Position numbers and translations under genes: made by a program. DNA of 20,074 nt. It comes from a virus (taxonomy: Duplodnaviria > Heunggongvirae > Uroviricota > Caudoviricetes). Shown one piece after another: positions 189 to 20,074 of this stretch. The stretch is from IMG/VR virus record IMGVR_UViG_2663763227_000012. One strand, given 5' to 3'. The notes under the pieces are model-generated. The model was not told the origin of the DNA and made no database searches. It saw nothing but the letters and a program-made list of their open reading frames with translations. The stretch's first letter is position 1. Each line of letters starts with the position of its first letter.

Positions 189-1484
189 TTAATTTTTCAT
201 TGCTTCGTTATGGGGCATGGTTGGGGCAAACTCGCTTAACTGTGTATTTAACAAAGCTACCTGTGCATTATTGTTTTCAGACATCCATTTTCCGTATACC
301 TGAAATACCATTTGCGCATCTGCATGGCCCATCTGGTTTGCTATAAATGCCGGGTTAGCACCAGCTGTCAGCGACCAGCAGGCATAAGTATGTCTCGACT
401 GATATGATTTTCGATGGCGGAGTCCGGCACGTTTTATCGCTGCGTCCCACATCTGCCTTATTGAGTCAACGGTAAAATGGTCACCATAATTTTTTACTCT
501 CGCTGACACTTCAGGTTGAAAAACAAAGGTGCATTTTTGTTTTTCTGTTCTGCCATACTCTCTGAGGTGAACATCAATGATATGCTCTTTGCTCAGTCTC
601 GTTAATGTCATCTGACTCCGGAGAGCGTCGATTGCTGGCTTAATAAGATGAATGACCCGATTGGTTCCCGCCTGTGTTTTTGGTACCGTGAAACGGTCTT
701 TTGCTAAATTTCTCCTGATCATCATTGTTCCATTTTTCAGATCTATGTCCTCCCATCCAAGTGCACACAGCTCACCAGGGCGAACTCCAGTATAAACAGA
801 AACACACCATAAATTTTTTGCTTGCTGATTTCTGCACGCATCGATAAGACGGATAAATTCTTCCCGCGAAAGAGGATCCGGAATGGTTCTTGATTCCTTT
901 AATGGCGAGATCCCCTTAAACGGATTATCTGCCAGGTAACCGTTATCAACACCAAACTGGAACACGGCGTTAAGATTTGTCATGTAATTATTTACAGTTA
1001 CAGCCGATCTCCCTGGTTGTGTAACAATATAGTTACTTTTGGGGATCTGGTATCCAGTCAGTAACTCTTTACGAACCTCCAGTAATTTTTCTTTATTAAT
1101 CGATGAGGCAAGATTTTTTTCACCGATTATGCTCAGGATATTTTTGATGACGGCACGGTATGTGTTGAGTGATGTTTTGGCGACTTCAGTTTCTTTCAGT
1201 GCCAGAAATTTTTCAGCCAGTTCTTTTATGGTTAAATCTTGTCGGGCCTCACCAAATTTTTCCAGATTGCGTGAGGAGGGAAACTGTTTTGCATAGTCGA
1301 AAACACCAGTTTTTATTGCGTAACAAACAGAGGAGCGTAGTTCACCTGCAACGCGCCTGTTTTTTGCTGTGTCAGGAACCCCCAGATTTTCCCTGACTCT
1401 TACGTCTTTATAAACAAACCAGATACGTAATTTCCCTCCATGGTTTTCCACGCCTGTCGGATATTTCATTTCAACTTCTCTCAT
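189..1484 (-). CDS. int: Phage tyrosine integrase (site-specific recombinase)
   Basis: 431-aa ORF with a C-terminal catalytic region containing R..H..R..H..Y-type residues (LRHRKSYQSRHTYACW). Sits at the prophage edge next to an excisionase-like gene. Confidence 0.9.
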   Translation of the reverse strand: MREVEMKYPTGVENHGGKLRIWFVYKDVRVRENLGVPDTAKNRRVAGELRSSVCYAIKTGVFDYAKQFPSSRNLEKFGEARQDLTIKELAEKFLALKETEVAKTSLNTYRAVIKNILSIIGEKNLASSINKEKLLEVRKELLTGYQIPKSNYIVTQPGRSAVTVNNYMTNLNAVFQFGVDNGYLADNPFKGISPLKESRTIPDPLSREEFIRLIDACRNQQAKNLWCVSVYTGVRPGELCALGWEDIDLKNGTMMIRRNLAKDRFTVPKTQAGTNRVIHLIKPAIDALRSQMTLTRLSKEHIIDVHLREYGRTEKQKCTFVFQPEVSARVKNYGDHFTVDSIRQMWDAAIKRAGLRHRKSYQSRHTYACWSLTAGANPAFIANQMGHADAQMVFQVYGKWMSENNNAQVALLNTQLSEFAPTMPHNEAMKN

Positions 1485-1827: not shown

Positions 1828-4299
1828 TTAAGAATCAGCCTGACTCGGGATCAGTTTTTGCCAGATAACTGAAACGTATTTTGCCTGGTAACGGGCGTCA
1901 TCAAGTGCATTATGGCGCTCACCTTCGAATGGAATAGCCGTTCTGGCATCGAAGTCTATGGCTTTCCCCAGCTCAACGATTGTGCGTACATCGCGATCGT
2001 TGTAGTAACGCCACGGGCAGGGGATCCCCTGCCGTTCGTATGAACGGCGCAAAATCGTGTTGTCGAAGTTGGCTCCATTTCCCCAAACCTGAACAAAAAA
2101 TTCACCGGAGTTTTCGTCGATAAATTCTCGCAATTGTAACAGTGCATCATCTAACGGGATTTCATCGGTCATAATGGCAGATTGCGCTTCGCGTGATTGC
2201 TTAAGCCACCATTTAATGGTGTCCCGATCAATGACTCCGCCAGCAGTTTCCAGATCGATAGTCTTACTAAATTCCGGTCCCATATCTCCGGTTTGCGGAT
2301 CGAAAAATATTGCACCTATTGAGATGATCGGGGCATCAGGATTTTTTCCCATGGTTTCAAGGTCGATCATTAGATGGTCACACGTCCTGCTGGTGGATGT
2401 GATTTCGTGATGACCGTTCACCTTAATTGGGTGATCTGCCGTCTCGCCAGTTTCATTATCGCTATTGTGATGCTGATTGCCGCCAGTGTTCTCCTTGTGT
2501 GGATGTTCAGCGCCTTCCATTTCCTCCGGATCATCTTCCTGAACTTCAACCTGATACTCTTCATCGAATGTTTCTTGGTATGTTGCGTCGCCCATCACCG
2601 CGCCACAATCAGGGCAGTTGCCGCCGCCGGTCTGACCGCAGGCGGTGCAGACTTTTTCCACTTCCTGTTGCGCTACTGGTTCAGGCTGTTTCGTTTCTGG
2701 CTCGTTTTGTAACGCATTTGGACTGTTTTGTTCCGCTTTTTGGTAGTTCCGTTCCGATTCATGCTGGTTCTGGTTCACAGAATCGCGGGTCTGGAGCCCC
2801 TTAACCCATTTCGGATCATTCGGGTCACTAATCCCTTCAACAAATTCACCACGTGATGCAGCAAGCAACTTATCGGCGTCAGGCTGGCTGATATTGGCTG
2901 CCTGCATAATTTTGTTTACTTCGTCAGCGGTAACTTTTATCGGCTCTGGTTGTTCTGAATCTTCAGCGGTATCTACATTTTGCGGTAAGCCCGTGTATGT
3001 GCCATTTTTTCGGGCAAAATATTCTTCTTTTGTGATTTCAGTGGCGCCAGCAGCCAGTGCCTTATCCAGACCAGAGAGTTTGTTTGCGCGACCGTATTTT
3101 TCTCCGTCCTTATCTGCGAAGAGGAAATAGAACGGCCCCTCACGCTCTACAGATGGTTCAGCTTCCGGCGCGGTTTCATTTTTTGGGATATCAGATACCT
3201 CAGTTTCCACTGCATCAGTTTGTGTTTCTGATGACTGGAGAACATCAACAGTGCCCAGGTCTGTTTCTTCATTCTCAAACACGCCCTTTGTCGTCAGGTA
3301 TTCGCAGATATATTTGTTCAGTGCTACGGGATCTTTGTGAATGTCGATCGGACGCTCACGGACAAGGCCAAAAATAGTTTGGCGGTCGTAGCGAAGGGCA
3401 TCAGGCTGTTTGCGCATTGATGCCGAGATACGCTTCCAGTCTTCGCGGTCGTTGTCGATAACTTCTTTTTTTGCCCAGCGATGGATGCTGCCGTCAATGT
3501 TTCCGGCATCCACATCACTAGGCCAGAGAGCGTAGGCCAGTTCGTCATCCAGTGTTTTCCATGTCTGCTTGTATTCGCGATGAATGGCAGCAATGACCGG
3601 GCTGATTTTTCCTGTTGAATTTTCAGTGTACTGTTGATTGGCTCTGGCGCGGGCGAGATCAACAACAGACGTGTATTTTCCGGTTTCCTTGCGTTCACCT
3701 TCGCGACGTTTTTTCCAGATGCGCATCTCTGCCTGAATTTCGGGCCATTTGGCACCAGGCTTACATTTATGCTTAACCCACCCGATGGCATGCAGCTTAA
3801 GCTCCGGATACATGGCGTTAACTTCTGGCATTTTCATCAACGCTTCAACGATATGTCCGTCGAATGTTGCCATGTCTTCCTGCAACAATTCCTGCGCGCT
3901 AATCACCATATCAACGGTGATGTTTTCACATGTGTCGAACTTAACCATGACAGCGTTCTGTACTTCAGGGGCCAGCTTGTCAAAAGTGACGTTCATCGGA
4001 TCGGATTCAGTCTCAACCGGGACAAAAGAAGCAGACTCCTCATCCCAGCGGTTTTCCTGCATATATTCAGCATCCCATGAATCGAGGGCAGGGCGGGGTA
4101 TGCCAGGTTTATCCTCGCAGACAATAAATTTATAAGCGCAGTCCTGAGCAGCCGGATAATGTTCCAGGAATTGCCAGTGAAATTTTGCTCGAGCACGGCG
4201 TTCGTCGCCAGCTTCAATGGCTGTGGCTACAGCCACAGCGCCTTCTTCCCTTGTTGCCAGTTCGTCAGGAATAGCGGCGCAAATAAAGACTTTACTCAT
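1828..4299 (-). CDS. Large prophage protein with C-terminal DnaQ-like DEDDh 3'-5' exonuclease domain and a CxxC-x7-CxxC zinc ribbon
   Basis: ORF 1828..4335 (track starts at a TTG); I prefer the ATG at 4299 (MSKVFICAAIPDE...), which has a GAGG about 10 nt upstream. Exo I (MIDLETMG), Exo II (VWGNGANFD) and Exo III (HNALDDARY) motifs lie in the last ~185 aa (nt ~1831-2390). Zinc ribbon VCTACGQTGGGNCPDCG at nt ~2599-2655. N-terminus resembles the K-12 Qin ydfE fragment from memory. Confidence 0.75.
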   Translation of the reverse strand: MSKVFICAAIPDELATREEGAVAVATAIEAGDERRARAKFHWQFLEHYPAAQDCAYKFIVCEDKPGIPRPALDSWDAEYMQENRWDEESASFVPVETESDPMNVTFDKLAPEVQNAVMVKFDTCENITVDMVISAQELLQEDMATFDGHIVEALMKMPEVNAMYPELKLHAIGWVKHKCKPGAKWPEIQAEMRIWKKRREGERKETGKYTSVVDLARARANQQYTENSTGKISPVIAAIHREYKQTWKTLDDELAYALWPSDVDAGNIDGSIHRWAKKEVIDNDREDWKRISASMRKQPDALRYDRQTIFGLVRERPIDIHKDPVALNKYICEYLTTKGVFENEETDLGTVDVLQSSETQTDAVETEVSDIPKNETAPEAEPSVEREGPFYFLFADKDGEKYGRANKLSGLDKALAAGATEITKEEYFARKNGTYTGLPQNVDTAEDSEQPEPIKVTADEVNKIMQAANISQPDADKLLAASRGEFVEGISDPNDPKWVKGLQTRDSVNQNQHESERNYQKAEQNSPNALQNEPETKQPEPVAQQEVEKVCTACGQTGGGNCPDCGAVMGDATYQETFDEEYQVEVQEDDPEEMEGAEHPHKENTGGNQHHNSDNETGETADHPIKVNGHHEITSTSRTCDHLMIDLETMGKNPDAPIISIGAIFFDPQTGDMGPEFSKTIDLETAGGVIDRDTIKWWLKQSREAQSAIMTDEIPLDDALLQLREFIDENSGEFFVQVWGNGANFDNTILRRSYERQGIPCPWRYYNDRDVRTIVELGKAIDFDARTAIPFEGERHNALDDARYQAKYVSVIWQKLIPSQADS

Positions 4300-4391
4300 T
4301 TGTTTTAACCTCATGACAGATTTAAGGATGAACAAATCCCTGCCATTGTTGGCATATAAGAATGAAACCGGATATTTATTACGGAACTGTT

Positions 4392-6757: not shown

Positions 6758-7262
6758 ACAGGCTCGTGAGGCTCTGGATGCCTGGATATGTCGACCAGGA
6801 ATGACACAGGAGCAGGCGACGATATTAATCACTGAAGCATTCTGGGCTTTGAAAGAGCGCCCGAACATCGATGTTCAGCGTGTCACATATGAAGGTGGCG
6901 CGATTGATCAGCGAGCGCTTGGCGTTAATCGAGTGAAGATATTTGAACGCTGGAAGGCTATCGACACCAGGGATAAGCGTGAAAAGTTCACGGCGCTAGT
7001 GCCTGCAATTATGGAGGCTATCCGGATTAATGATTTCAGGTTGTATCGTGAAATTACTGACGGAAAAAGCATCACGTGCATGATCGCCGGGTTAAACAAA
7101 GAATATGGCGATGTGGTGGAGTCCGGACTGCTTTTTGCTGATCCTGCCGTAGTGGATCGTGAAACTGACGAACTTATAGAAAAAGCAATTGCTTTCAAAC
7201 TTGCGTATCGACAGCAATACCAACAAAAAGCTGGATGGAATTATGAGCCTTCTTTTTGCTGA
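6741..7262 (+). CDS. YdaT-like early protein (CII-position regulator family)
   Basis: 173-aa ORF overlapping the dicC 3' end. The central segment (ERWKAIDTRDKREKFTALVPAIMEAI) resembles the conserved core of Rac YdaT as recalled. Confidence 0.6.
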   Translation: MKITPEQAREALDAWICRPGMTQEQATILITEAFWALKERPNIDVQRVTYEGGAIDQRALGVNRVKIFERWKAIDTRDKREKFTALVPAIMEAIRINDFRLYREITDGKSITCMIAGLNKEYGDVVESGLLFADPAVVDRETDELIEKAIAFKLAYRQQYQQKAGWNYEPSFC

Positions 7263-8208
7263 ACGCCCACTGGTTATAAACACGCAGCTGGCAATGAAAA
7301 TTGGCTTAAACGAAGCCATTGTTTTGCAACAACTGCACTACTGGTTGAGAGATACCAACTCCGGCATGGAATGTGATGGTGTTCGCTGGATTTATAACAC
7401 AACGGAACAATGGCTGGAACAGTTCCCATTCTGGTCAGAGTCAACGTTAAAGCGCGCGTTTGCAAGTCTGAAAACGCTGGGGCTTTTGCGTTGTGAAAAG
7501 CTCAATAAATCAAAGCGCGATATGACCAATTTCTACACGATCAACTATGGGAGCGAGCTTTTAGATGGTGGCAAATTGAGCGAATCCATCGGTTCAAAAT
7601 GCGCCGCTCCATCAGGTCAAAATGACACGATGGAAGAGGTCAAAATGAAACGCTCCATTGGTTCAAAACGACCCAATGTCATCGGGTCAAAATGGCCTGA
7701 TGATCTTACAGAGAATACAACAGAGATTACTACAGAGAATAAAAACACTTTTCGTCCGGAAGCTTCGCAACCGGACCCGCAGACGACTGAACAGGATTTT
7801 TTAACCCGGAACTCCGACGCGGTTGTGTTTAGTGCGAAAAAACGCCAGTGGGGTAGCAGGGAGGATTTGGCGTGTGCGCAGTGGATCTGGGGGCGGATCG
7901 TGGGTCTCTACGAACAGGCAGCCAGTGATGATGGCGAGATCATGCGACCAAAAGAGCCTAACTGGACTGCCTGGGCCAATGACGTGCGCACAATGCGGAT
8001 GCTGGATGGCAGAAGCCACAGACAAATTTGCGAAATGTTTGGTCGGGTTCAGCGAGATCCATTCTGGGTAAAAAACATCATGAGCCCGTCAAAGCTCCGC
8101 GAAAAATGGGACGAACTGGTCATCCGCCTGGGACGTTCACCTGTACAGCGTTGTGTTAATCATATTTCTGAACCGGATACAGAAATTCCGCCTGGTTTCA
8201 GAGGATAA
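7243..8208 (+). CDS. Phage replication initiator / replisome-organizer-like protein (O-like)
   Basis: ORF 7189..8208; I prefer the ATG at 7243 (MSLLFAERPLVINTQLAMKIGLNEAIVLQQLHYWLRD...), which gives a winged-helix-like N-terminal domain. Internal iteron array and position after the cro/cII-like genes support an initiator role. Confidence 0.6.
   Translation: MSLLFAERPLVINTQLAMKIGLNEAIVLQQLHYWLRDTNSGMECDGVRWIYNTTEQWLEQFPFWSESTLKRAFASLKTLGLLRCEKLNKSKRDMTNFYTINYGSELLDGGKLSESIGSKCAAPSGQNDTMEEVKMKRSIGSKRPNVIGSKWPDDLTENTTEITTENKNTFRPEASQPDPQTTEQDFLTRNSDAVVFSAKKRQWGSREDLACAQWIWGRIVGLYEQAASDDGEIMRPKEPNWTAWANDVRTMRMLDGRSHRQICEMFGRVQRDPFWVKNIMSPSKLREKWDELVIRLGRSPVQRCVNHISEPDTEIPPGFRG
7588..7694 (+). 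repeat. Five direct iteron-like repeats (consensus ~ATCGGGTCAAAATG) at ~23-bp spacing, candidate ori
   Basis: Copies at 7588-7601, 7611-7624, 7636-7647, 7657-7670 and 7681-7694 inside the initiator gene (seen as repeated IGSK in the protein). Confidence 0.55.
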
Positions 8209-8248
8209 GTGTTGATTTCAGGTCATGAGGTAATTTTAAGGGGGACTT

Positions 8249-8671
8249 GTGGCAAAAGTTTTTACACAAGAAGAGCGGGAAAAAATTAAATGGCAGGTGG
8301 TGGAACTCGTGCGCCAGAGCGGCCGTGAGACGTTACGGCAACTGGAAGCTAAAACAGGTGCGACTAGATATCTGATGAGCGTTCTTGCCAGAGAGCTGGT
8401 AGCCAGTGGCGATGTATACAACTCCGGCTACGGGTTATTCCCCTCTGAACAGGCGCGTAAGGACTGGCAAAACGCCCGCAAAAAACTCTCGAGGGCAAAG
8501 GTGAAGAAACCTGCTGTGGTTGATCCGGACCTTATCTGGTCATCACCTGACGGAGAAATACGTCGCTACGACAGTCGCCTAAACATAATCTGTCGCGAGT
8601 GCCGGAAGAGCGAAGTTATGCAGCGCATACTGGCTTTCTATCAGGGTAATTTTCAGGACGTGGCGCAGTGA
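8249..8671 (+). CDS. Hypothetical prophage protein, possible HTH
   Basis: 140-aa ORF with GTG start at 8249 preceded by GGGGG. Segment ETLRQLEAKTGATRYLMSVLARELV looks HTH-like. Stop overlaps the next gene's GTG start (GTGA at 8668-8671). Confidence 0.5.
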   Translation: MAKVFTQEEREKIKWQVVELVRQSGRETLRQLEAKTGATRYLMSVLARELVASGDVYNSGYGLFPSEQARKDWQNARKKLSRAKVKKPAVVDPDLIWSSPDGEIRRYDSRLNIICRECRKSEVMQRILAFYQGNFQDVAQ

Positions 8672-9024
8672 GTGCACCGGCAACCATTCTTGATATGTGC
8701 TGTGGCAGCCGCATGTTCTGGTTCGATAAGTCTGACGAACGGGCGATATTCAGCGATATCAGAAAAGAAGGATACACATTACGCAATGGGAGACGCTTGA
8801 TTATCAGCCCTGACATTATCGCAGATTTTCGTGCATTATCATTTGCAGACGCATCTTTTTCGATGGTTGTATTAGACCCTCCGCATCTTGAGAGTGTTGG
8901 TGATAACGCCTGGATGGGAAAGAAATATGGACGGCTGAATAAAGATGCCTGGCGTGATGATTCGCGACAGAGATTTAAAGAAGCCTTTCGGGTGTTGAGG
9001 CCGCACGGCGTTCTGATTTTTTAA
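8668..9024 (+). CDS. N6-adenine DNA methyltransferase-like protein, short and probably truncated
   Basis: 118 aa with SAM motif I-like DMCCGS and motif IV DPPH (VVLDPPHL), plus a RVLRPHGVLIF strand typical of class I MTases. Too short for a complete MTase fold; the frame stays open 30 codons past the TAA at 9022-9024. Confidence 0.55.
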   Translation: MSAPATILDMCCGSRMFWFDKSDERAIFSDIRKEGYTLRNGRRLIISPDIIADFRALSFADASFSMVVLDPPHLESVGDNAWMGKKYGRLNKDAWRDDSRQRFKEAFRVLRPHGVLIF

Positions 9025-10137
9025 TGGAATGAAACGCAAATACCGGTAAGCCAGATTCTGGCACTGACAGACAGAAAACCTGTTATCTGTCAACGAACAG
9101 GGAAAAAACGATAAAACCCACTGGATTATTTTTATGAAAGAGGCATCCAGTGAGTAGATTCGTAAGGCTACAGATACGTATATCTGAATAATTAAATTCA
9201 GTTCTGTAAATAAAATTTAATCCTTAACCGGATGGATTTCTGCACCCTCAGAACATCAGGAGGCCGCCCGAAAGGGCGGTAGTGAAATGCGAAAGTTCAA
9301 AATTATTATTGAAACGGGAATAGCTGGTGGAGATTTTGAGGATGTATTCGAAGTGGACGATGACGCAACACCTGAGGAAATTCATGACGGAGCATAAGAA
9401 ATTTTCTTTAACTACTGCAATTACTCATACCACGAAATAAAAGACGATGAGGAAGAACAAAGTGGCTGATTTTTGTTCAGCTAAATATAACATCAGTTTT
9501 GAAGAGCGGGATGAACTATTAATGGACTATGGTGAGTTACGCGGTGGAAGTGCTGCTGATGTCGAATCCTAGCGTGATGACTATGAAGCGGGAAAAACTC
9601 CGGTCGAAGCATATTGTGATGAGTGGGGCGATGAATGAGCGAGATTAATTATCAGGAAGGGCATGAAACGGCGGGGCAAGCAAAACCAGTGGCATGGCGA
9701 TATCGCTACGTGAAAAAAGGCGTTACGGACTTTCAGGGGAAGTAGTGGTCTGGTGACTGGAAATATGTACCGAAAAAAGAGGATTGTAACGACAGGCCGA
9801 ACTATCAAATTCAGGCCTTATTCACTGCCTCACCAGTCCCAGTTACATCAGAAGAACTGGTTAAAGCTGTGCACTTTTATGAACAACTAAAACGCGAAAA
9901 TCCACCAACATCCGGCAACTAGATTAATGGATTAACTATGTCGGTTAAACGACCAGCCAACTGAAAAAGCGGAAACCTGATTACAGGTTGCCAGATAAGG
10001 CAATGAGCTACCTGGCGCGGAACGGACTGATAAGTATGGGGAATGTTTTACGATGAACCTTTAGACTAAAGAGTTTGTAACGCTATGTAAGTGATTTTTT
10101 CTGGTTTAGATATTTATATGTCCGGCCAAATTGAGGT
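9025..10137. other. AT-rich decayed accessory segment with several gene-like frames each broken by an in-frame stop
   Basis: 9288-9470 (MRKFKIIIETGIAGGDFEDVFEVDDDATPEEIHDGA-TAA-EIFFNYCNYSYHEIKDDEEEQSG), 9490-9637 (in-frame TAG at 9569-9571) and 9635-9921 (MSEINYQEGHETAGQAKPVAWRYRYVKKGVTDFQGK-TAG-WSGDWKYVPKKEDC...). No ORF over 60 aa on the plus strand. Confidence 0.4.
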
Positions 10138-10176
10138 GTGTTTAAATGTAATTGCACATTGATTGTAGGAGGAATA

Positions 10177-10356
10177 ATGAAAAACGCATTGCAGTTTTTG
10201 TTTGTTGCGTTCTGGTTGTTCGCATCATGTATGCCCATCATCTTCACAGCAAGGTATATGGAAAAAGTTGATGTTTTGATATTAATATTTGGATATATAA
10301 ATGCCCTTTTTTTAGGGGTGTTCATGGCGGTCATGTGCATTGAATACTGGCGGTAA
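10177..10356 (+). CDS. Small hydrophobic (predicted two-TM) membrane protein
   Basis: 59 aa from ATG 10177 (MKNALQFLFVAFWLFASCMPIIFTARYMEKVDVLILIFGYINALFLGVFMAVMCIEYWR) with canonical AGGAGG 5 nt upstream. Lies in an AT-rich island. Confidence 0.45.
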   Translation: MKNALQFLFVAFWLFASCMPIIFTARYMEKVDVLILIFGYINALFLGVFMAVMCIEYWR

Positions 10357-10690
10357 ATACAGCGAACTCCATTGGTTTAGTTGGATATTTACTGTGCTGG
10401 ACAAAAACGGTTTGCGGGGAAATCTTAGTTAAGTAGAATGACTGCGGGTGCTTGAGGCTATCTGCCTCGGGCATGGACACCAACGGCAGATAGAGAAAAG
10501 CCCCAGTTAACATTACGCGTCCTGCAAGACGCTTAACATTAATCTGAGGCCAATTTCATGCTAGACACATGTAGGTTAGCCTCTTACGTGCCGAAAGGCA
10601 CGGAGAAGCAGGCTATTGTTAACACCAAGCTGTAATGTCCCCTTTGAACCATTCTAAAATGTCCCCAGACAATTCTCTGGGGGATTTTTC

Positions 10691-12004
10691 ATGATCAAAG
10701 AGACTGTTACGATGAGTCATAAGGAACTCCACCGACTTCAGATTATTCAGGAACAAGCTGCGGCACGCATTGGCATTTCTATTCGGCAGGTTAAACGTCT
10801 GGTGCAACGGTATAGAAATGAAGGGCCTTCTGGTCTGGTTTCCCACCGACGTGGAAAGCGTCCTAATAATTCCTTTTCTACTGAATTCAGAGCAACAGTA
10901 ATTTCACTCCTCAAAGGCCGTTACGCTGATTTTGGACCTACGTTTGCGTGCGAAAAATTGCGCGAGATACACGGTTTATCTTTATCCGTTGAAACTCTCA
11001 GAAAGTGGATGATAGAAGAGGGGTTATGGCGTGAACGCCGTCGTAAAATTGCCCGTATATATCAACGCCGCATGCGACGACCATCTTACGGTGAACTGAT
11101 CCAGATTGATGGCTCACCTCATGACTGGTTTGAAAATCGAGGCCCCAGATGTACACTGATCGTTTTCATTGATGATGCCACCAGTGCGTTGATGGCGTTG
11201 CGTTTTGTGCCTGCTGAAACAACCCGGGCTTACATGGAAACCCTCCGGGGTTACCTTAATGATCATGGCGTACCGCTCGCTCTCTACTCTGATAGACACA
11301 GTATATTCAGGGTAAATAACCCAGAGCGGGAAGGTGAGCTGACCCAGTTCACTCGTGCGATAAAGACACTGGGCATCGAGCCAATCCATGCCAACAGCCC
11401 GCAGGCAAAAGGGCGGGTAGAGCGCGCCAATCAGACACTACAGGACAGGCTGGTCAAAGAAATGCGGCTTCAGAATATCAGTGATATTGAAACAGCAAAT
11501 GCATGGTTGCCGACCTTTATTGAAGCCTATAACAACCGGTTCGCTACGTCGCCTCGTACTACTGATAATGCTCATCTTGATGTGCACCATTCTGAAGAGG
11601 AACTGGGTTATATCTTCAGCCTACAGGCGAAGCGCGTTCTGTCTAAAAATCTCACTTTCCAGTACAAAAGCAGTGCGTTTCAGGTACGCAGTGAGGGCCG
11701 GGGATATCGACTTAGGCATTCGGTTGTTACTGTATGCGAGAACTTTGACGGTGAAATTAACGTTCTGTATGACGGGAAAGCGCTGGGCTGGGAAAAGTAT
11801 GTTGATGGCCCGGAGCCTATACCACTGGATGATGAAAAGAGTGTCCATGAACGAGTGGATAATGCCCGTATTGATTTACGCTCAAAATACTATGTTAAAC
11901 CTAAAGCTGACCATCCCTGGCTTACGCGCCGAACGCAAAGTCATCAGCAAGTTAAGCCCCCGAAGTTACCTAAAAAGAAGCCTGATCCCGATAAAAAAGA
12001 TTGA
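10691..12004 (+). CDS. DDE transposase/integrase-core (rve) protein with N-terminal HTH, IS481/ISNCY-like
   Basis: 437-aa ORF: N-terminal HTH (IGISIRQVKRLVQRY), then an rve-type catalytic core (IQIDGSPHDW...TLIVFIDDATS...GRVERANQTLQD) and a basic C-terminal tail. Element boundaries not resolved. Confidence 0.8.
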   Translation: MIKETVTMSHKELHRLQIIQEQAAARIGISIRQVKRLVQRYRNEGPSGLVSHRRGKRPNNSFSTEFRATVISLLKGRYADFGPTFACEKLREIHGLSLSVETLRKWMIEEGLWRERRRKIARIYQRRMRRPSYGELIQIDGSPHDWFENRGPRCTLIVFIDDATSALMALRFVPAETTRAYMETLRGYLNDHGVPLALYSDRHSIFRVNNPEREGELTQFTRAIKTLGIEPIHANSPQAKGRVERANQTLQDRLVKEMRLQNISDIETANAWLPTFIEAYNNRFATSPRTTDNAHLDVHHSEEELGYIFSLQAKRVLSKNLTFQYKSSAFQVRSEGRGYRLRHSVVTVCENFDGEINVLYDGKALGWEKYVDGPEPIPLDDEKSVHERVDNARIDLRSKYYVKPKADHPWLTRRTQSHQQVKPPKLPKKKPDPDKKD

Positions 12005-12399
12005 AACCAAGATCGATTCGGTTGAGTGCATATCCATTCATAGGGTAGATTCTTAAGTCGCGTTTCTGGTGTTCATTTTCGGGTGGTTTGTTACTTGTTT
12101 TACCGGGGATATGCCAGAAACGCGCTGAGTCAGTCTGGGCGGTGCGCGTAATGAGGCGTTATGGTAAATAGCCTATGCTAATGTCCGCTAAGAGCAAGAA
12201 GCGGAAGTTGGCAGTTTTGTGGACTGTCCCCACAAAAGTGACTACAGAAATAGTTGCAATTCATAATTGATCATGGGTTGTCAGTTAAACTCGTGGCGAT
12301 TTAAATAGACTAATTGGGAGTGCGTCCATTACTTATATCTTGTAATGTTAACTATCAGAAATGATACAAAGATAATATGTCTTTAAAGAAAAGGCTGAT

Positions 12400-12427
12400 G
12401 GCGAAAAGTGGCCCGATGAGGGCCACA
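12400..12427 (-). terminator. Intrinsic terminator downstream of flxA
   Basis: Hairpin GTGGCCC-gatgag-GGCCAC (12408-12426) followed on the minus strand by a T-run. Confidence 0.5.
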
Positions 12428-12440
12428 ATACGGCTGTCAC

Positions 12441-12773
12441 TTAGACGTAAATATCAATGGTGCCAGCGGTATTTGTATCGTCTTTTTTCTCTTCTTTTTT
12501 ATCAGGCTGAACTGTCGCGTCTTCATTCTTTTTCTCTGCCTGCTGCCTTAACAACTGCTCCAGTTGAGCCCAGAGGCTTTCAATTTGCTTTTGTACCAAT
12601 GCAGCCATTTCTTTTTTCTGCTGTGTCGTCATCCCCTCTTCCGATGAGATTTTCCCAAGCTTTTCAGTCAGCACCTGAATTTGTCTTGTGATTTTGGCTA
12701 TTTCTGATGTTCCTTCCGGGGCGGAGTTGTTTGAAATAACGGTTGAGGTATTTCCCTGAATTGTGACAGACAT
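12441..12773 (-). CDS. flxA: FlxA (sigma-28-dependent Qin prophage protein)
   Basis: 110-aa ORF (MSVTIQGNTSTVISNNSAPEGTSEIAKITRQIQVLTEKLGKISSEEGMTTQQKKEMAALVQKQIESLWAQLEQLL...) matching FlxA as recalled. Confidence 0.85.
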   Translation of the reverse strand: MSVTIQGNTSTVISNNSAPEGTSEIAKITRQIQVLTEKLGKISSEEGMTTQQKKEMAALVQKQIESLWAQLEQLLRQQAEKKNEDATVQPDKKEEKKDDTNTAGTIDIYV

Positions 12774-12796
12774 AGATTTCTCCTTTTAAAAAAACA

Positions 12797-12824
12797 CTAT
12801 CGGCATGCACAAAAAAATCTTTAA
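12797..12824 (-). promoter_or_regulatory. Sigma-28 (FliA) class-3 promoter for flxA
   Basis: Minus strand reads TTAAAG-N15-GCCGATA (-35 at 12819-12824, -10 at 12798-12804), close to the FliA consensus TAAA-N15-GCCGATAA, about 25 nt upstream of the flxA start. Confidence 0.6.
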
Positions 12825-12975
12825 TCGTATTTCTTGTGTCATTAATTGTTTGATGTTCAGATTGTTTTCCTCGCGGGCTGGCGCGCCTCAGAAAGTAAAG
12901 CTTGTTGACAGGGGTAAACGTTCGGCAATAATTTTCTGCCGCATGCGGGTGTTGCATAAAACGTGTTACGTTCCT

Positions 12976-13281
12976 TTATCGACAGGTCAGGTCACCGCTC
13001 ACCCGCCGACGAGAAAGCAACACTGACATGCTAAAGCAAAAAATAGATGAATAAGTTGAGTTGTGCATATGTAGCCTGACCGTCACAAAGTATATGGTGT
13101 CTGTACCAGTAAGATGATGGCCGGACTCTTTAAAAACGAGCTGACCTGCACAATACAGGATGGACTTAGCAATGGCTGCTCCTGGCACAAAGCGGACAGT
13201 GATCACCGTTCTTACGACTACTTTCTGACTTCCTTCGTGACTTGCCCTAAGCATGTTGTAGTGCGATACTTGTAATGACAT
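12976..13281 (-). CDS. ydfV: YdfV-like hypothetical protein
   Basis: 101-aa ORF between flxA and relB, same position and length as Qin ydfV. Unusual composition, so it may not be a real protein. Confidence 0.45.
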   Translation of the reverse strand: MSLQVSHYNMLRASHEGSQKVVVRTVITVRFVPGAAIAKSILYCAGQLVFKESGHHLTGTDTIYFVTVRLHMHNSTYSSIFCFSMSVLLSRRRVSGDLTCR

Positions 13282-13294
13282 TTGTAATTACAAG
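13269..13294 (+). promoter_or_regulatory. relO-like operator in the relBE promoter
   Basis: CTTGTAAT-gacat-TTGTAATTACAAG: inverted and direct TTGTAAT hexads immediately upstream of the relB start. Confidence 0.6.
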
Positions 13295-13305
13295 AGGTGT
13301 AAGAC

Positions 13306-13545
13306 ATGGGTAGCATTAACCTGCGTATTGACGATGAACTTAAAGCGCGTTCTTACGCCGCGCTTGAAAAAATGGGTGTAACTCCTTCTGAAGCGCTTCG
13401 TCTCATGCTCGAGTATATCGCTGACAATGAACGCTTGCCGTTCAAACAGACACTCCTGAGTGATGAAGATGCTGAACTTGTGGAGGTAGTGAAAGAACGG
13501 CTTCGTAATCCTAAGCCAGTACGTGTGACGCTGGATGAACTCTGA
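13306..13545 (+). CDS. relB: RelB antitoxin
   Basis: 79-aa ORF (MGSINLRIDDELKARSYAALEKMGVTPSEALRLMLEYIADNERLPFKQTLLSDEDAELVEVVKERLRNPKPVRVTLDEL), near-identical to E. coli RelB as recalled. Confidence 0.9.
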   Translation: MGSINLRIDDELKARSYAALEKMGVTPSEALRLMLEYIADNERLPFKQTLLSDEDAELVEVVKERLRNPKPVRVTLDEL

Positions 13546-13832
13546 TGGCGTATTTTCTGGATTTTGACGAGCGGGCACTAAAGGAATGGCGAAAGCTGGG
13601 CTCGACGGTACGTGAACAGTTGAAAAAGAAGCTGGTTGAAGTACTTGAGTCACCCCGGATTGAAGCAAACAAGCTCCGTGGTATGCCTGATTGTTACAAG
13701 ATTAAGCTCCGGTCTTCAGGCTATCGCCTTGTATACCAGGTTATAGACGAGAAAGTTGTCGTTTTCGTGATTTCTGTTGGGAAAAGAGAACGCTCGGAAG
13801 TATATAGCGAGGCGGTCAAACGCATTCTCTGA
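13545..13832 (+). CDS. relE: RelE toxin (ribosome-dependent mRNA interferase)
   Basis: 95-aa ORF (MAYFLDFDERALKEWRKLGSTVREQLKKKLVEVLESPRIEANKLRGMPDCYKIKLRSSGYRLVYQVIDEKVVVFVISVGKRERSEVYSEAVKRIL). Start overlaps the relB stop (ATGA). Confidence 0.9.
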   Translation: MAYFLDFDERALKEWRKLGSTVREQLKKKLVEVLESPRIEANKLRGMPDCYKIKLRSSGYRLVYQVIDEKVVVFVISVGKRERSEVYSEAVKRIL

Positions 13833-13903
13833 ACCAAAGCATGACATCTCTGTTTCGCACCGAAGGTGACACTTCTGCTTTGCGTTGACAGGAGAAGCAG
13901 GCT

Positions 13904-14059
13904 ATGAAGCAGCAAAAGGCGATGTTAATCGCCCTGATCGTCATCTGTTTAACCGTCATAGTGACGGCACTGGTAACGAGGAAAGACCTCTGCGAGGTAC
14001 GAATCCGAACCGGCCAGACGGAGGTCGCTGTCTTCACAGCTTACGAACCTGAGGAGTAA
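13904..14059 (+). CDS. hokD: Hok-family membrane toxin HokD (RelF)
   Basis: Hand-translated 51-aa ORF (MKQQKAMLIALIVICLTVIVTALVTRKDLCEVRIRTGQTEVAVFTAYEPEE), below the track cutoff. GGAGAAG RBS; third gene after relBE. Confidence 0.85.
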   Translation: MKQQKAMLIALIVICLTVIVTALVTRKDLCEVRIRTGQTEVAVFTAYEPEE

Positions 14060-14127
14060 GAGACCCGGCGGGGGAGAAATCCCTCGCCACCTCTGATGTG
14101 GCAGGCATCCTCAACGCACCCGCACTT

Positions 14128-14158
14128 AACCCGCTTCGGCGGGTTTTTGTTTTTATTT
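14128..14158 (+). terminator. Rho-independent terminator after hokD
   Basis: CCCGC-ttcg-GCGGG stem (14130-14143) followed by TTTTTGTTTTTATTTT. Confidence 0.7.
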
Positions 14159-14275
14159 TCAACGCGTTTGAAGTTCTGGACGGTGCCGGAATAGAATCAA
14201 AAATACTTAAGTAGCGCGCAGGGATAAGAGGGATGGTCCCTTAAAGGGGAGAGCTAATTATCCGGAAGGATTCTG

Positions 14276-14527
14276 ATGATGAACATCGAAGAACTGCGTA
14301 AAATTTTTTGTGAAGATGGCCTCTATGCTGTGTGCGTTGAAAATGGAAATCTTGTTAGTCATTACCGCATTATGTGTTTGCGAAAGAATGGGGCTGCGTT
14401 AATTAATTTTGTGGATGCTCGGGTCACGGACGGATTTATCTTGCGCGAAGGTGAGTTTGTCACTTCATTACAGGCATTGAAAGAGATCGGAATAAAAGCT
14501 GGCTTTTCTGCTTTTTCAGGAGAATAA
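14276..14527 (+). CDS. rem: Rem-like small prophage protein
   Basis: 83-aa ORF (MMNIEELRKIFCEDGLYAVCVENGNLVSHYRIMCLRKNGAALINFVDARVTDGF...), matching Qin Rem in length and position after hokD. Confidence 0.6.
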   Translation: MMNIEELRKIFCEDGLYAVCVENGNLVSHYRIMCLRKNGAALINFVDARVTDGFILREGEFVTSLQALKEIGIKAGFSAFSGE

Positions 14528-14593
14528 ACTCATCTACAATCTTGCGCGGGGCTGAACTCCCGCTGAGTAACACCGTGCCACCGGAGAAAACCG

Positions 14594-14872
14594 ATGGCAC
14601 GCAACGCAAAATATTACAATTCTGATAATTCGCCCGTTCTTGCCTGCACGCACGGGCGGTATTCTCACGCATTCAAGTCTGAATGGTTCCAGCACCCTCC
14701 ATGCACTGCAGAACAGGCCGAATGGCTGATTCATTCTTACCGCAGGCGCGGGTTCGAGGTTAAGAAAGCTCTCAGTCTCGACTATCGGCACTGGATAATC
14801 TCTGTCAGGCTGCCTTATTCCGAACGCCCACCACGTGCGTCCCGCACTTTCCAGCAACGGATCTGGAGGTAA
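14594..14872 (+). CDS. Hypothetical protein (Cys/His-containing)
   Basis: 92-aa ORF with GGAG RBS before ATG 14594. Its stop (14870-14872) lies 1 nt before the GTG start of the DUF968-like gene. Confidence 0.5.
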   Translation: MARNAKYYNSDNSPVLACTHGRYSHAFKSEWFQHPPCTAEQAEWLIHSYRRRGFEVKKALSLDYRHWIISVRLPYSERPPRASRTFQQRIWR

Positions 14873-14873
14873 C

Positions 14874-15875
14874 GTGCGGGTATTACTTAGACCTGTTCTG
14901 GTGCCTGAGCTTGGGCTGGTGGTCCTTAAGCCGGGCCGTGAATCCATACAGATATTTCATAATCCTCGAGTGCTGGTGGAACCGGAACCAAAAAGCATGC
15001 GTAATCTGCCATCCGGAGTCGTTCCTGCCGTTCGCCAGCCGCTGGCGGAAGACAAAACATTGCTGCCGTTTTTTAGTAACGAACGGGTGATTCGTGCTGC
15101 TGGCGGCGTTGGCGCATTGTCCGACTGGCTATTACGTCATGTTACATCCTGCCAGTGGCCTAATGGCGATTACCATCACACTGAAACAGTCATTCACCGT
15201 TATGGTACCGGCGCAATGGTGTTGTGCTGGCACTGCGACAACCAACTGCGTGACCAGACATCGGAATCACTGGAGCTGCTTGCTCAACAAAATCTGACAG
15301 CATGGGTGATTGACGTCATCCGTCACGCAATAAGCGGTACGCAGGAGCGGGAATTATCTTTGGCTGAATTATCCTGGTGGGCGGTCTGCAATCAGGTGGT
15401 GGATGCACTACCTGAGGCTGTATCGCGTCGTTCGCTGGGATTACCAGCGGAAAAAATCTGCTCGGTGTACCGCGAAAGCGACATCGTACCGGGAGAGCAG
15501 ACCGCCACCAGCATATTGAAACAACGCACAAAAAATCTTGCACCGTTGCCTTACGCCCACCAGCAACAAAAATCACCACAGGAAAAGACGGTGGTAAGCA
15601 TCACCGTTGATCCAGAGTCTCCGGAATCTTTCATGAAGCTGCCTAAACGTCGCCGCTGGGTTAAGGAGAAATACACACGTTGGGTTAAGACACAGCCGTG
15701 TGCTTGCTGCGGTATGCCAGCCGACGATCCGCATCATCTGATTGGTCACGGGCAGGGCGGAATGGGAACAAAAGCACATGATCTCTTTGTGTTGCCTTTG
15801 TGCAGAAAGCATCACAACGAGCTGCATACGGATACAGTGGCATTTGAAGATAAGTATGGCTCCCAACTGGACTGA
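14874..15875 (+). CDS. ydfU: DUF968/YdfU-like protein with C-terminal HNH-like Cys/His motif
   Basis: ORF 14835..15875 in the track; I prefer the GTG at 14874 because GGAGG sits 4 nt upstream. C-terminus CACCGMPADDPHHLIGHGQGGMGTKAHDLFVLPLCRKHHNELH is HNH-nuclease-like. Confidence 0.65.
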   Translation: MRVLLRPVLVPELGLVVLKPGRESIQIFHNPRVLVEPEPKSMRNLPSGVVPAVRQPLAEDKTLLPFFSNERVIRAAGGVGALSDWLLRHVTSCQWPNGDYHHTETVIHRYGTGAMVLCWHCDNQLRDQTSESLELLAQQNLTAWVIDVIRHAISGTQERELSLAELSWWAVCNQVVDALPEAVSRRSLGLPAEKICSVYRESDIVPGEQTATSILKQRTKNLAPLPYAHQQQKSPQEKTVVSITVDPESPESFMKLPKRRRWVKEKYTRWVKTQPCACCGMPADDPHHLIGHGQGGMGTKAHDLFVLPLCRKHHNELHTDTVAFEDKYGSQLD

Positions 15876-15935
15876 TATTTCGTTTTATCGATCGCGCGCT
15901 GGCAATTGGCGTACTGGCGTAAGTGGAGAACGAGC

Positions 15936-16688
15936 ATGAACCTTGAAGCCTTACCAAAATATTACTCCCCAAAATCTCCAAAATTGAGCGATGACGCTCC
16001 AGCGACAGGCACCGGTTGTTTAACAATTACGGATGTAATGGCAGCGCAGGGGATGGTGCAGTCGAAAGCACCACTTGGGTTGGCCTTATTTCTGGCAAAA
16101 GTTGGTGTTCAGGACCCTCAGTTTGCGATTGAAGGCCTGCTAAATTACGCGATGGCACTGGATAACCCGACATTGAACAAATTGAGTGAAGAAATCCGGT
16201 TACAGATTATTCCTTACCTCGTGAGTTTTGCCTTTGCTGATTACTCCAGGTCTGCGGCAAGTAAGGCTCGCTGTGAGCATTGTTCAGGTACGGGATTTTA
16301 TAATGTATTGCGCGAAGTGGTGAAACACTACAGACGCGGGGAATCTGTAATCAAGGAAGAATGGGTGAAGGAACTATGTCAGCATTGCCATGGTAAGGGC
16401 GAAGCCAGCACAGCGTGCAGAGGGTGTAAGGGTAAAGGGATTGTTCTGGATGAAAAAAGAACCCGGTTTCATGGCGTACCGGTATATAAGATTTGTGGGC
16501 GTTGTAATGGAAACCGGTTTAGTCGTTTACCGACCACGCTGGCACGACGTCATGTCCAGAAGCTGGTACCAGACCTGACCGATTATCAGTGGTATAAGGG
16601 GTATGCGGACGTCATTGGTAAACTGGTAACAAAGTGCTGGCAGGAAGAAGCATACGCGGAAGCGCAATTGAGGAAGGTGACGAGATAA
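15936..16688 (+). CDS. quuQ: Late-gene antiterminator Q
   Basis: 250 aa from ATG 15936 (MNLEALPKYY...), GGAG 8 nt upstream. Cys-rich zinc-binding region (CEHCSGTG...CQHCHGKG...CRGCKGKG...CGRCNGN) typical of the 82/DLP12-type Q family. Confidence 0.8.
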   Translation: MNLEALPKYYSPKSPKLSDDAPATGTGCLTITDVMAAQGMVQSKAPLGLALFLAKVGVQDPQFAIEGLLNYAMALDNPTLNKLSEEIRLQIIPYLVSFAFADYSRSAASKARCEHCSGTGFYNVLREVVKHYRRGESVIKEEWVKELCQHCHGKGEASTACRGCKGKGIVLDEKRTRFHGVPVYKICGRCNGNRFSRLPTTLARRHVQKLVPDLTDYQWYKGYADVIGKLVTKCWQEEAYAEAQLRKVTR

Positions 16689-16793
16689 ATGATTTTTGCT
16701 GAAGATGGCGACATGATGTTTGCATTTTTCAAAAAATATGGATAAAATTTTTTCAACGATGGGCTTTGTATACCCGACGTTAAGAAAAAGTAG

Positions 16794-17109: not shown

Positions 17110-17322
17110 TCATGAAAGGTAAACATTGGCAGCTGAAGGGCCACGCAGACCATTTATCCGGCAAAATTCCACGCGTAATCCGGTGGTAATTTCTTCTGCA
17201 TCGCGGAGATTGAGCGCTGAAACATGAAGCTGGACATCGATACGACCATCGGATGGGGTGATAAGACCCTTGCCGCTTTTGCCGTCAAAGGTTTTGACAA
17301 TTCCTGTCATTTTACGGGACAA
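17110..17322 (-). CDS. cspF: Cold-shock-domain protein, CspF/CspH family
   Basis: 70-aa ORF ([70 protein letters not shown]), divergent from cspB. Confidence 0.85.
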
Positions 17323-18201: not shown

Positions 18202-18372
18202 TCAGGCTACAGCTTTAAGATTTGTCTGGAATACTTTGTTGCAATGAGGGCAGATCAAAAGGGCACCTTTTTGTACTCTTGAAAAACTGTGTTCTGACTC
18301 TTGGGTGCAGTTTGGGCAGGAACATTTAACGAGATAATTACGGCGTGATTTTGAGTTTTTACGTTCTGACAT
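18202..18372 (-). CDS. Small zinc-ribbon protein (CxxC...CxxC)
   Basis: 56 aa from internal Met of ORF 18202..18423 (MSERKNSKSRRNYLVKCSCPNCTQESEHSFSRVQKGALLICPHCNKVFQTNLKAVA), basic N-terminus and two CxxC pairs. May correspond to one of the small Qin zinc-binding proteins; not confirmed. Confidence 0.5.
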   Translation of the reverse strand: MSERKNSKSRRNYLVKCSCPNCTQESEHSFSRVQKGALLICPHCNKVFQTNLKAVA

Positions 18373-18591
18373 AGGCTTTTCCTGTATAAATGGCCGTATA
18401 CAGTACACTAAATATGAAAACATTTCTCGTATTATTATTTTATATATGACTTTCTTTCAAAATAATTACCCACATTTTTAATGTGTATGTTTTTTTAGCG
18501 CCGTTGAGAACAACGTGTGCTGTCAAAACTACCCCGTAGACTCCGAGCTTTTCAAACATATTGCACCATCCGTGTACATCGGGGTGAGGAT

Positions 18592-19123: not shown

Positions 19124-20074
<951 letters not shown>

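Follow-up and report, generated by a model that had tools for sequence, protein, structure and literature searches.

The flxA locus and its promoter

Judged by its sequence, the 20,074-nucleotide stretch of viral DNA analysed here (IMG/VR record IMGVR_UViG_2663763227_000012, hereafter the window) represents a lambdoid prophage of the Qin type in a fairly intact state. Its host is an Escherichia coli other than K-12, in which it is integrated beside rspB. Our subject is flxA, a gene on the minus strand of this prophage, together with the sigma-28 (FliA) promoter that precedes it and the transposon in which both are found. The features at the locus, in the order in which transcription would meet them, are these.

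12823–12816, minus strand: −35 element of the sigma-28 (FliA) promoter, TAAAGATT, part of the one exact TAAA-N15-GCCGATA match in the window
12804–12797, minus strand: −10 element of the same promoter, GCCGATAG, separated from the −35 element by an 11-nucleotide (nt) spacer
12785–12780, minus strand: Shine-Dalgarno sequence AAGGAG, between the −10 element and the ATG, 6 nt before the ATG of flxA
12441–12773, minus strand: flxA coding sequence, an open reading frame (ORF) of 110 amino acids (aa)
12426–12408, minus strand: terminator-like hairpin GUGGCCC-UCAUC-GGGCCAC (7-bp GC-rich stem, 5-nt loop), followed by UUUU at 12407–12404

How closely does the promoter resemble those of flagellar genes? 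It matches the consensus TAAAGTTT-N11-GCCGATAA at 14 of 16 positions, has the same orientation as flxA and ends, with its −10 element, 23 nt upstream of the ATG (12773–12771). The initial annotation had placed a near-consensus sigma-28 promoter some 25 nt upstream of flxA on the minus strand, and that assignment stands. The spacing given with it, TTAAAG-N15-GCCGATA, requires correction: so written the gap is 14 nt, while the canonical TAAA-N15-GCCGATA is exact. In this canonical form the motif occurs once in the 20 kb, both strands included, where shuffled sequences lead one to expect 0.01 occurrences. With one mismatch allowed there are two occurrences in the window against 0.37 expected.

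Over the 1.1 kb around flxA the window is 99.8% identical to K-12, with two differing positions and both promoter elements unchanged. One difference is synonymous and lies inside flxA. The other, a T at 12794 where K-12 has C, lies 3 nt downstream of the −10 element, and its equivalent also varies (C, A) in the Enterobacter copies of flxA. The hairpin behind the gene, folded in a 51-nt context, has a predicted energy of −17.3 kcal/mol (z = −3.3).

Published evidence for FliA dependence

The FliA promoter of flxA is not new. For the flxA of the K-12 Qin prophage (b1566) it has been known and tested since 1997, when Ide & Kutsukake (Gene 199:19) described flxA in their title as FliA-dependent but dispensable for motility. 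Table 2 of Fitzgerald 2014 (PMC4183435) gives as the FliA motif of flxA a 28-mer, TAAAGATTTTTTTGTGCATGCCGATAGT, identical to that of the window. The same paper reports a FliA peak at flxA by chromatin immunoprecipitation sequencing and an RNA-seq value of 280 in the wild type compared with 2 in the fliA deletion, and, with reference to Ide & Kutsukake 1997, counts the promoter of flxA among the well-characterised ones that depend on FliA. On the arrays of Zhao 2007 flxA changed by −28.4-fold in a fliA deletion and by +8.2-fold upon induction of FliA. A peak of the sigma-28 holoenzyme was found within the ydfV–flxA spacer by genomic SELEX (systematic evolution of ligands by exponential enrichment; Shimada 2017), and in later transcriptomes flxA co-varies with the flagellar genes.

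These experiments put the K-12 flxA under FliA, apparently in the FliA-only (class 3) regulon, and, by near-identity, the allele of the window probably belongs there too. The membership of the host flagellar regulon that the initial annotation claimed is thus borne out by published K-12 data on a near-identical sequence, and the test that it proposed, flxA expression in a fliA mutant against the wild type, had been answered for K-12 in the sense of FliA dependence. Of the motility phenotype that it suggested looking for in a flxA deletion, the 1997 title says that the gene is dispensable.

The promoter across the FlxA family

Is the promoter a property of the phage gene or of the family to which FlxA belongs? 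We examined 80 FlxA-like loci, at about 25–45% identity, from Pantoea, Erwinia, Mixta, Winslowiella, Enterobacter, Kluyvera, Cedecea, Dryocola, Buttiauxella, Brenneria and Acerihabitans. Their promoter zones were scored by mismatches to TAAAGTTT-N10-12-GCCGATAA (maximum 16), and 4,000 random segments of the same loci served as the control. A score of at least 12/16 was reached in 65 of the 80 loci but in only 82 of the 4,000 controls; at least 13/16 was reached in 33 loci and 7 controls. The usual form in the homologues is TCAAG...(G/A/T)CCGATAA. In about 50 loci the motif ends 25–34 nt before the start codon. For about 16 further loci the reported gap was 5–6 nt, the first-ATG rule having set the start 8 codons too far upstream, and the corrected gap is about 29–30 nt. 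The remaining loci have mis-assigned long ORFs or no good match to the motif. The upstream DNA of these homologues is otherwise unrelated; the distance of the motif is kept in all loci for which it was assigned.

In 76 of the 80 loci the flxA-like gene is flanked by the same LysR and SBF neighbour genes, so that it is vertically inherited in these genera. In Pantoea the gene is part of the core chromosome, between gltX and a LysR gene and near ligA and zipA, and its promoter, TAAAGTCG-N11-GCCGATAA, stands 29 nt before the ATG. Relatives at 64% identity, which are found either beside the traI gene of a conjugative element or within an accessory region, have as promoters TAAGTTTT or TAAATTTA-N11-ACCGATAT. 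An Enterobacter copy at 85% identity shares with the window only 12430–12912, that is, the ORF and 139 nt upstream of it, without the hairpin; the smallest mobile unit is thus promoter plus gene. The close family is small, an exhaustive search of 1.8 billion representative proteins giving 48 matches. The distant members, named FlxA-like in Pantoea, were surfaced by profile search, a word-indexed search having given almost only E. coli copies.

We conclude that the sigma-28 promoter, on the sequences compared, is a trait of the whole family, chromosomal members included, and was not acquired by the phage gene. The FliA promoter of flxA itself is old knowledge; its presence before relatives of flxA in many bacteria looks new.

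The transposon that carries flxA

How, then, does flxA come to lie in this prophage? It is found inside a unit whose parts are the following.

10617–13890, plus strand: complete IS1202/ISNCY-family transposon of 3,274 bp, holding transposase, flxA, ydfV, relB and relE; limits set by an empty site
10602–10616, plus strand: left copy of the 15-bp target-site duplication, GGAGAAGCAGGCTAT, present as a single copy in phage HannyBb
10617–10644, plus strand: left terminal inverted repeat, TGTTAACACCAAGCTGTAATGTCCCCTT; the motif ATGTCCCC recurs about 20 nt inward
10691–12004, plus strand: transposase, 437 aa, intact
10617–12209: left arm (left repeat and transposase), conserved across copies of the element
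12210–13178: variable cargo of 969 bp, in which flxA, its promoter and the terminator-like hairpin are joined by two-thirds of the ydfV ORF (3′ part)
12976–13281, minus strand: ydfV ORF, 101 aa, starting 24 nt from relB and divergent from it; spans the arm/cargo junction at 13178
13179–13890: right arm (relBE promoter region, relBE and right repeat), conserved across copies of the element
13306–13545, plus strand: relB (NCBIfam RelB, 132 bits; K-12 accession)
13545–13832, plus strand: relE (NCBIfam RelE, 54.7 bits; K-12 accession)
13863–13890, minus strand: right terminal inverted repeat, TGTCAACGCAAAGCAGAAGTGTCACCTT in the minus-strand reading
13891–13905, plus strand: right copy of the 15-bp target-site duplication, comprising the Shine-Dalgarno sequence of hokD and the AT of its ATG

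The ends are fixed by the collinear phage HannyBb, an empty site in which the sequences corresponding to 10426–10616 and 13890–16771 of the window are contiguous, with an overlap of about 15 nt. The 28-bp inverted repeats are imperfect, matching at 20 of 28 positions, and the termini read TGT...ACA. The transposase scores 456 bits against the NCBIfam model NF033594 (ISNCY; cut-off 250). In Pfam it has helix-turn-helix (HTH) domains and a weak match to rve_3, and its plasmid copies are annotated in RefSeq as belonging to the IS1202-like ISEsa1 family. Homology to the copies on Klebsiella plasmids ends at 12199–12209 and restarts at 13178–13179. We therefore read flxA here as a passenger in the variable cargo slot of a 3,274-bp IS1202/ISNCY-family transposon.

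An imperfect 16-nt inverted repeat (GTTGGCAGTTTTGTGG / CCACAAAAGTGACTAC) lies at 12207–12245, at the junction of transposase arm and cargo (12209). Near 12177–12246, where an ISEsa1 of 1,609 bp would end, no convincing right repeat was seen by eye, no formal alignment having been made. A perfect 12-nt inverted repeat, AGTTAACATTAC, is found at 10505–10516, in the sok/hok leader outside the transposon, and at 12342–12353, just past the flxA hairpin; with about 0.1 expected by our estimate, it may be due to chance. It was considered as a candidate for the transposon ends and dropped when the empty-site comparison fixed the true ones.

The ORF that the cargo shares with the right arm, ydfV, has no match in Pfam or NCBIfam, and only its first 33 codons or so are common to the copy on the Klebsiella plasmid pSH12_Vir. 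Transcription of ydfV has been reported, and together with relBE the gene is said to form an excludon. In the copy with metal-resistance genes (see below) most annotated cargo genes, chrB excepted, run in the direction of ydfV, from which it seems that transcription may start at a promoter in the right arm and enter any cargo that happens to lie there. The ydfV–flxA spacer also holds, at 12905–12932 on the plus strand, a near-consensus sigma-70-like promoter, TTGACA-16-AATAAT (11 of 12 matches), which reads rightwards, antisense to ydfV and toward relB some 370 nt off.

Insertion sites, cargo and alternative readings

Copies of the element at five hok-family sites were compared for the repeats that flank them.

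Qin-type prophage hokD (window): GGAGAAGCAGGCTAT, 15 bp
Enterobacter IncF plasmid hok: GGAGAAGAAGGCCAT, 15 bp
IncI plasmid pnd (Salmonella, E. coli): TGGAGGGGCTATGAT, 15 bp
Klebsiella plasmid pSH12_Vir, hok-family site: GGAGAAAAAGGCTAT, 15 bp
Klebsiella plasmid pRHBSTW-00636_3, hok-family site: GGAGTTGTATGGGTCC, 16 bp

At each site the two copies of the repeat are exact, and from site to site all differ in sequence. The cargo is the 969-bp flxA segment in the window and on the IncF and IncI plasmids. In pSH12_Vir it consists of insertion sequence (IS) fragments and a transporter fragment, and in pRHBSTW-00636_3 (K. pneumoniae, L181) about 10.5 kb of nickel (ncrABCY), chrB and HupE/UreJ cargo lies between the same arms, giving an element of 12,843 bp. 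The right repeat was found in 77 viral contigs, in 71 of them at the hokD site; 33 hold a complete element between matching repeats of 15 bp.

Could the transposase–flxA–relBE block spread instead by homologous recombination through its hok/sok flanks, the flanking repeats then not being target duplications? All sites seen but one are hok-family loci, which share sequence, and one viral contig combines a pnd-type left flank with a hokD-type right flank, so that recombination between copies of the transposon does occur. Recombination in the flanks would, however, import the repeat of the donor, whereas each of the five sites has a repeat of its own, identical on both sides, and the repeat is single-copy in the empty site. 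Moreover, identity between the IncF plasmid and the window falls from 99.6% inside the element to only 92.8% in the left flank, and one copy is found at an unrelated site. We consider this route improbable as the origin of the copies.

A phage moron, in the sense of Hendrix and co-workers, is a promoter–gene–terminator unit inserted between phage genes. The initial annotation found flxA and ydfV consistent with a moron of this kind; on that view they were inserted alone between genes of the rightward arm, with a promoter and a terminator of their own. The promoter is there, as is a stable hairpin behind the gene (four U), flxA is transcribed opposite to the surrounding phage genes, and the presence of FlxA in just 1 of 50,697 phage records, that of an induced Qin-like phage from ECOR13, marks it as accessory. 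The further argument that flxA and ydfV are the sole minus-strand genes of the arm fails, since cspF, ynfU and a 29-aa coding sequence are on that strand also. What HannyBb lacks is not flxA alone but one contiguous block of 3,274 bp with transposon ends, a 15-bp duplication and a transposase; between sok leader and hokD, the extra DNA relative to HannyBb is the whole transposon. The block is also present on IncF and IncI plasmids, outside any phage, and the Enterobacter copy shares promoter and ORF but no hairpin. At the level of the phage we hold the moron to be quite improbable. One level down the idea retains its value: compared with sister transposons, and only there, the 969-bp flxA segment is a swappable insert within the transposon family.

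It is most improbable, finally, that the sigma-28 match is fortuitous or irrelevant and that flxA is driven by sigma-70 polymerase or by read-through from ydfV, which lies upstream on the same strand, is transcribed and is followed by no clear terminator in the 202-nt spacer, for in K-12, where this idea is refuted, flxA RNA falls in the fliA deletion and FliA binds both in vivo and in vitro, the exact motif is hardly to be expected by chance, and it recurs at a fixed distance in homologues of 25–45% identity.

Proposed explanation

We propose, with a probability that we put at roughly 0.88, that flxA is a self-contained class-3 flagellar unit whose promoter is ancestral to its family, and which is here the cargo of an IS1202/ISNCY transposon inserted in a hok locus. 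RNA polymerase with sigma-28 (FliA) would recognise TAAAGATT-N11-GCCGATAG and start transcription a few bases downstream, probably near 12790, so that the leader would be short and hold a strong ribosome-binding site. Most flxA transcripts probably end at the hairpin (12426–12404). Expression would be confined to the time after FlgM releases FliA, late in flagellar assembly. The promoter wiring would be ancestral to the FlxA family, which in Erwiniaceae and several Enterobacteriaceae appears as a syntenic chromosomal gene. The module, promoter plus gene, would then have come to lie between a transposase arm and a relBE arm as variable cargo, and the transposon would have entered a Qin-type prophage at precisely the ribosome-binding site of hokD, duplicating 15 bp of its target. 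This insertion would have parted hokD from its sok/mok leader and created the order relB–relE–hokD known from K-12.

Several observations weigh against parts of this explanation. In four of the 80 homologue loci the score does not exceed 10, and the first base of the −10 element is in some cases A or T, not G. The experiments on the promoter come from K-12, which has C at 12794 where this strain has T. According to the title of the 1997 paper flxA is dispensable for motility, and the word flagellar must therefore be taken to describe its regulation, with no function implied. The hairpin has a run of only four T and drew no call from a terminator scanner; nor is it conserved in other flxA contexts, the homology of the Enterobacter copy ending at 12430. 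One complete flxA–relBE copy of 3,301 bp (IMG/VR contig L135, 1345–4645) lies at a non-hok site with a repeat of 6 bp only, CGCCTT. Transposition of the 3.3-kb unit is inferred only from independent insertions. Lastly, the published limits of ISEsa1 differ from the boundaries found here: in the IS1202 family as described by Harmer & Hall 2023 (PMC10132070) it is listed with 1,609 bp, 15/22 repeats and no detectable target duplication. This length equals that of the left arm of the present unit, which would account for the missing duplication.

The split hok locus and the K-12 arrangement

What became of the hok locus into which the transposon inserted? Its two halves are found on either side of the element.

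10446–10617, plus strand: the half of the split hok locus that holds the sok/hok leader; its right limit coincides exactly with the left end of the transposon
13904–14059, plus strand: hokD coding sequence (so annotated), just downstream of relBE and the right repeat

The sok leader matches the full length of the Rfam model RF01794 with 104 bits (gathering score 59). Against the NCBIfam Hok models hokD scores 48.5 and 40.2 bits, below their cut-offs; in near-identical genomes its product has the accession of the K-12 protein. In two further prophage copies (IMG/VR contigs L133 and L141) the right repeat abuts an internal part of hokD, the 5′ end of the gene having evidently been deleted beside the transposon.

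The K-12 Qin prophage lacks 7020–11820 of the window (4.8 kb), and with it the YdaT-like, O-like, DUF977 and methyltransferase genes, the sok leader, the left end of the transposon and most of the transposase. The K-12 coding sequence ydfW/intK corresponds to the last 49 codons of the transposase ORF that is intact in the window. The relBEF (relB–relE–hokD) operon of K-12 is known from Gotfredsen & Gerdes 1998, as cited in PMC5120126, and its origin has been put down to relBE of plasmids having integrated into hokD, as one review states and as Ramisetty & Santhosh 2016 reportedly describe. Our literature searches, which did not cover the latter paper, found no paper tying IS1202/ISNCY to hok, relBE or flxA, and nothing that brings a transposon or flxA into that account.

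These findings allow a wider proposal, which we put forward tentatively and at a little under even odds. ISEsa1 may be the left arm of an unrecognised family of cargo transposons, each with a transposase arm, swappable cargo and a relBE addiction arm, which insert with 15–16-bp duplications precisely at the ribosome-binding sites of hok-family genes, whether these belong to prophages or to IncF and IncI plasmids. Insertion would disconnect hok from Sok and put it behind relBE. The relBEF operon, ydfW/intK and the position of flxA in K-12 would all be remnants of one such insertion. As one cargo among several, flxA itself would be the mobilised form of a gene long present under sigma-28 control in Erwiniaceae and Enterobacteriaceae; other copies of the element carry nickel and chromate resistance in its place.

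How widely do the two travel? The transposase, at ≥90% identity, is found on more than 600 plasmids, and flxA, at about 99% identity, on only 19 (Enterobacter, Escherichia, Salmonella, Edwardsiella), always together with ydfV and relBE. All 19 plasmids come from flagellated genera and the three Klebsiella plasmid copies that were examined have other cargo, a small sample to which no statistics were applied. Metal-resistance cargo is moved by this transposon family on clinical and wastewater Klebsiella plasmids.

The FlxA protein

FlxA matches Pfam PF14282 with 53.8 bits (cut-off 26.3) over positions 2–96 of the 101 of the model, and flxA is annotated in 1,283 of 5,426 complete E. coli genomes. 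The AlphaFold model, built on an alignment of 18 sequences, predicts two helices, residues 20–42 and 50–87, with a predicted local distance difference test of about 85–95. The helices form a hairpin; residues 1–19 and 88–110 are predicted to be disordered. A sequence search of solved structures returned designed coiled coils only, and a Foldseek search of the PDB with the model gave nothing better than E = 0.6. A likeness to CdsO, a FliJ-like stalk protein of type III secretion, at rank 7 was set aside as generic hairpin similarity and is not relied on. The family has a conserved C-terminal motif, (I/V)D(I/V)Y(I/V), to which the Erwiniaceae add ADG(I/V)NRPT. Late-flagellar timing, small size and the predicted disorder of the N-terminus are compatible with a substrate of flagellar export or an accessory factor. 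Two giant proteins (P0131, 3,361 aa, and P0147, 2,729 aa) contain 17 and 7 repeats, respectively, that match residues 8–50 of FlxA at about 36–37% identity.

The prophage around the transposon

The gene order of the rest of the window is taken from the annotation of the near-identical strain CB6837 and from the ORF list of the window.

189–1484, minus strand: integrase
Next, minus strand: excisionase, then exonuclease (1828–4335), ydfD, dicB, ydfCBA and dicA
From 6527, plus strand: dicC (6527), a YdaT/cII-like gene, an O-like replication gene, a DUF977 gene and a methyltransferase gene
Right of flxA/ydfV, plus strand: relB, relE, hokD, rem, ydfU and the Q antiterminator (15906–16688)
About 17110–17322, minus strand: cspF; then cspB
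About 18202–18373, minus strand: ynfU; then the lysis genes

The closest genome matches to the window, at 99.8–99.9% identity, are human isolates. At 19817 an IS3-family element is inserted, and the window ends inside it (19817–20074). In CB6837 an element of IS3-family type lies not there but at the equivalent of position 9328 (L002 10328–11637), so that IS positions differ between otherwise near-identical prophages.

Significance and comparison with known systems

As a report of a promoter the initial annotation adds nothing new: from 1997 on, flxA has been a textbook example of a gene that belongs to the FliA regulon without being flagellar. The conservation of the promoter across the family and the transposon are modest new points. 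The family-wide promoter and the neighbours kept in 76 of 80 loci argue for a selected role of FlxA late in flagellar assembly, not for a curiosity of one prophage, and Pantoea or Erwinia, in which the flxA-like gene is core, offer a setting in which to study that function. The transposon would explain oddities of the K-12 Qin prophage, namely why its hokD lacks sok, how the relBEF operon arose and where the intK/ydfW fragment comes from. It also suggests that the IS1202 family has a target-specific member whose insertion replaces one system of plasmid maintenance by another and which brings cargo along, metal resistance on Klebsiella plasmids included.

How does the locus compare with systems already described? 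With the K-12 Qin flxA it shares the gene and the promoter 28-mer, the CB6837 protein even having the K-12 accession. It differs in the position at 12794, C in K-12, and in that the element, truncated in K-12 by the loss of 7020–11820, is intact in the window. With the canonical class-3 promoters (fliC, tar, motA, flgKL, flgMN; TAAAGTTT-N11-GCCGATAA) that of flxA has in common both elements and the 11-nt spacer, at 14/16. The flgKL promoter, in the table of Fitzgerald 2014, has the same TCAAG variant of the −35 element as most FlxA homologues. Unlike the products of the canonical class-3 genes, FlxA has no shown part in flagellar assembly, motility or chemotaxis.

Like a phage moron, flxA is an autonomous promoter and gene, present or absent among relatives and transcribed independently of the element that hosts it. 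Here, however, the element that varies around it is a transposon, not a phage, and the terminator lies outside the conserved module. The gene order is that of the K-12 relBEF operon, with hokD 71 nt past relE and devoid of a sok/mok leader of its own; in the intact copy of the window, the missing leader is found 3.3 kb leftward, beyond the transposon.

The members of the IS1202 family, among them ISEsa1 and the dif-targeting ISAjo2 group, resemble the present element in several respects. The transposase is large, about 440 aa, and combines HTH domains at its N-terminus with a core of the rve type. The termini read TGT...ACA, the imperfect repeats measure 24–28 bp, and the inner portion of the inverted repeat recurs internally. 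Members are listed with duplications of 16–17 bp, and some are target-specific (PMC10132070). ISEsa1 as listed differs from the unit described here, which reaches a second end past relE (3.3 to 12.8 kb), includes cargo and relBE and is flanked by duplications of 15–16 bp. The ISAjo2 group differs in its target, which is dif there and the ribosome-binding site of hok-family genes here.

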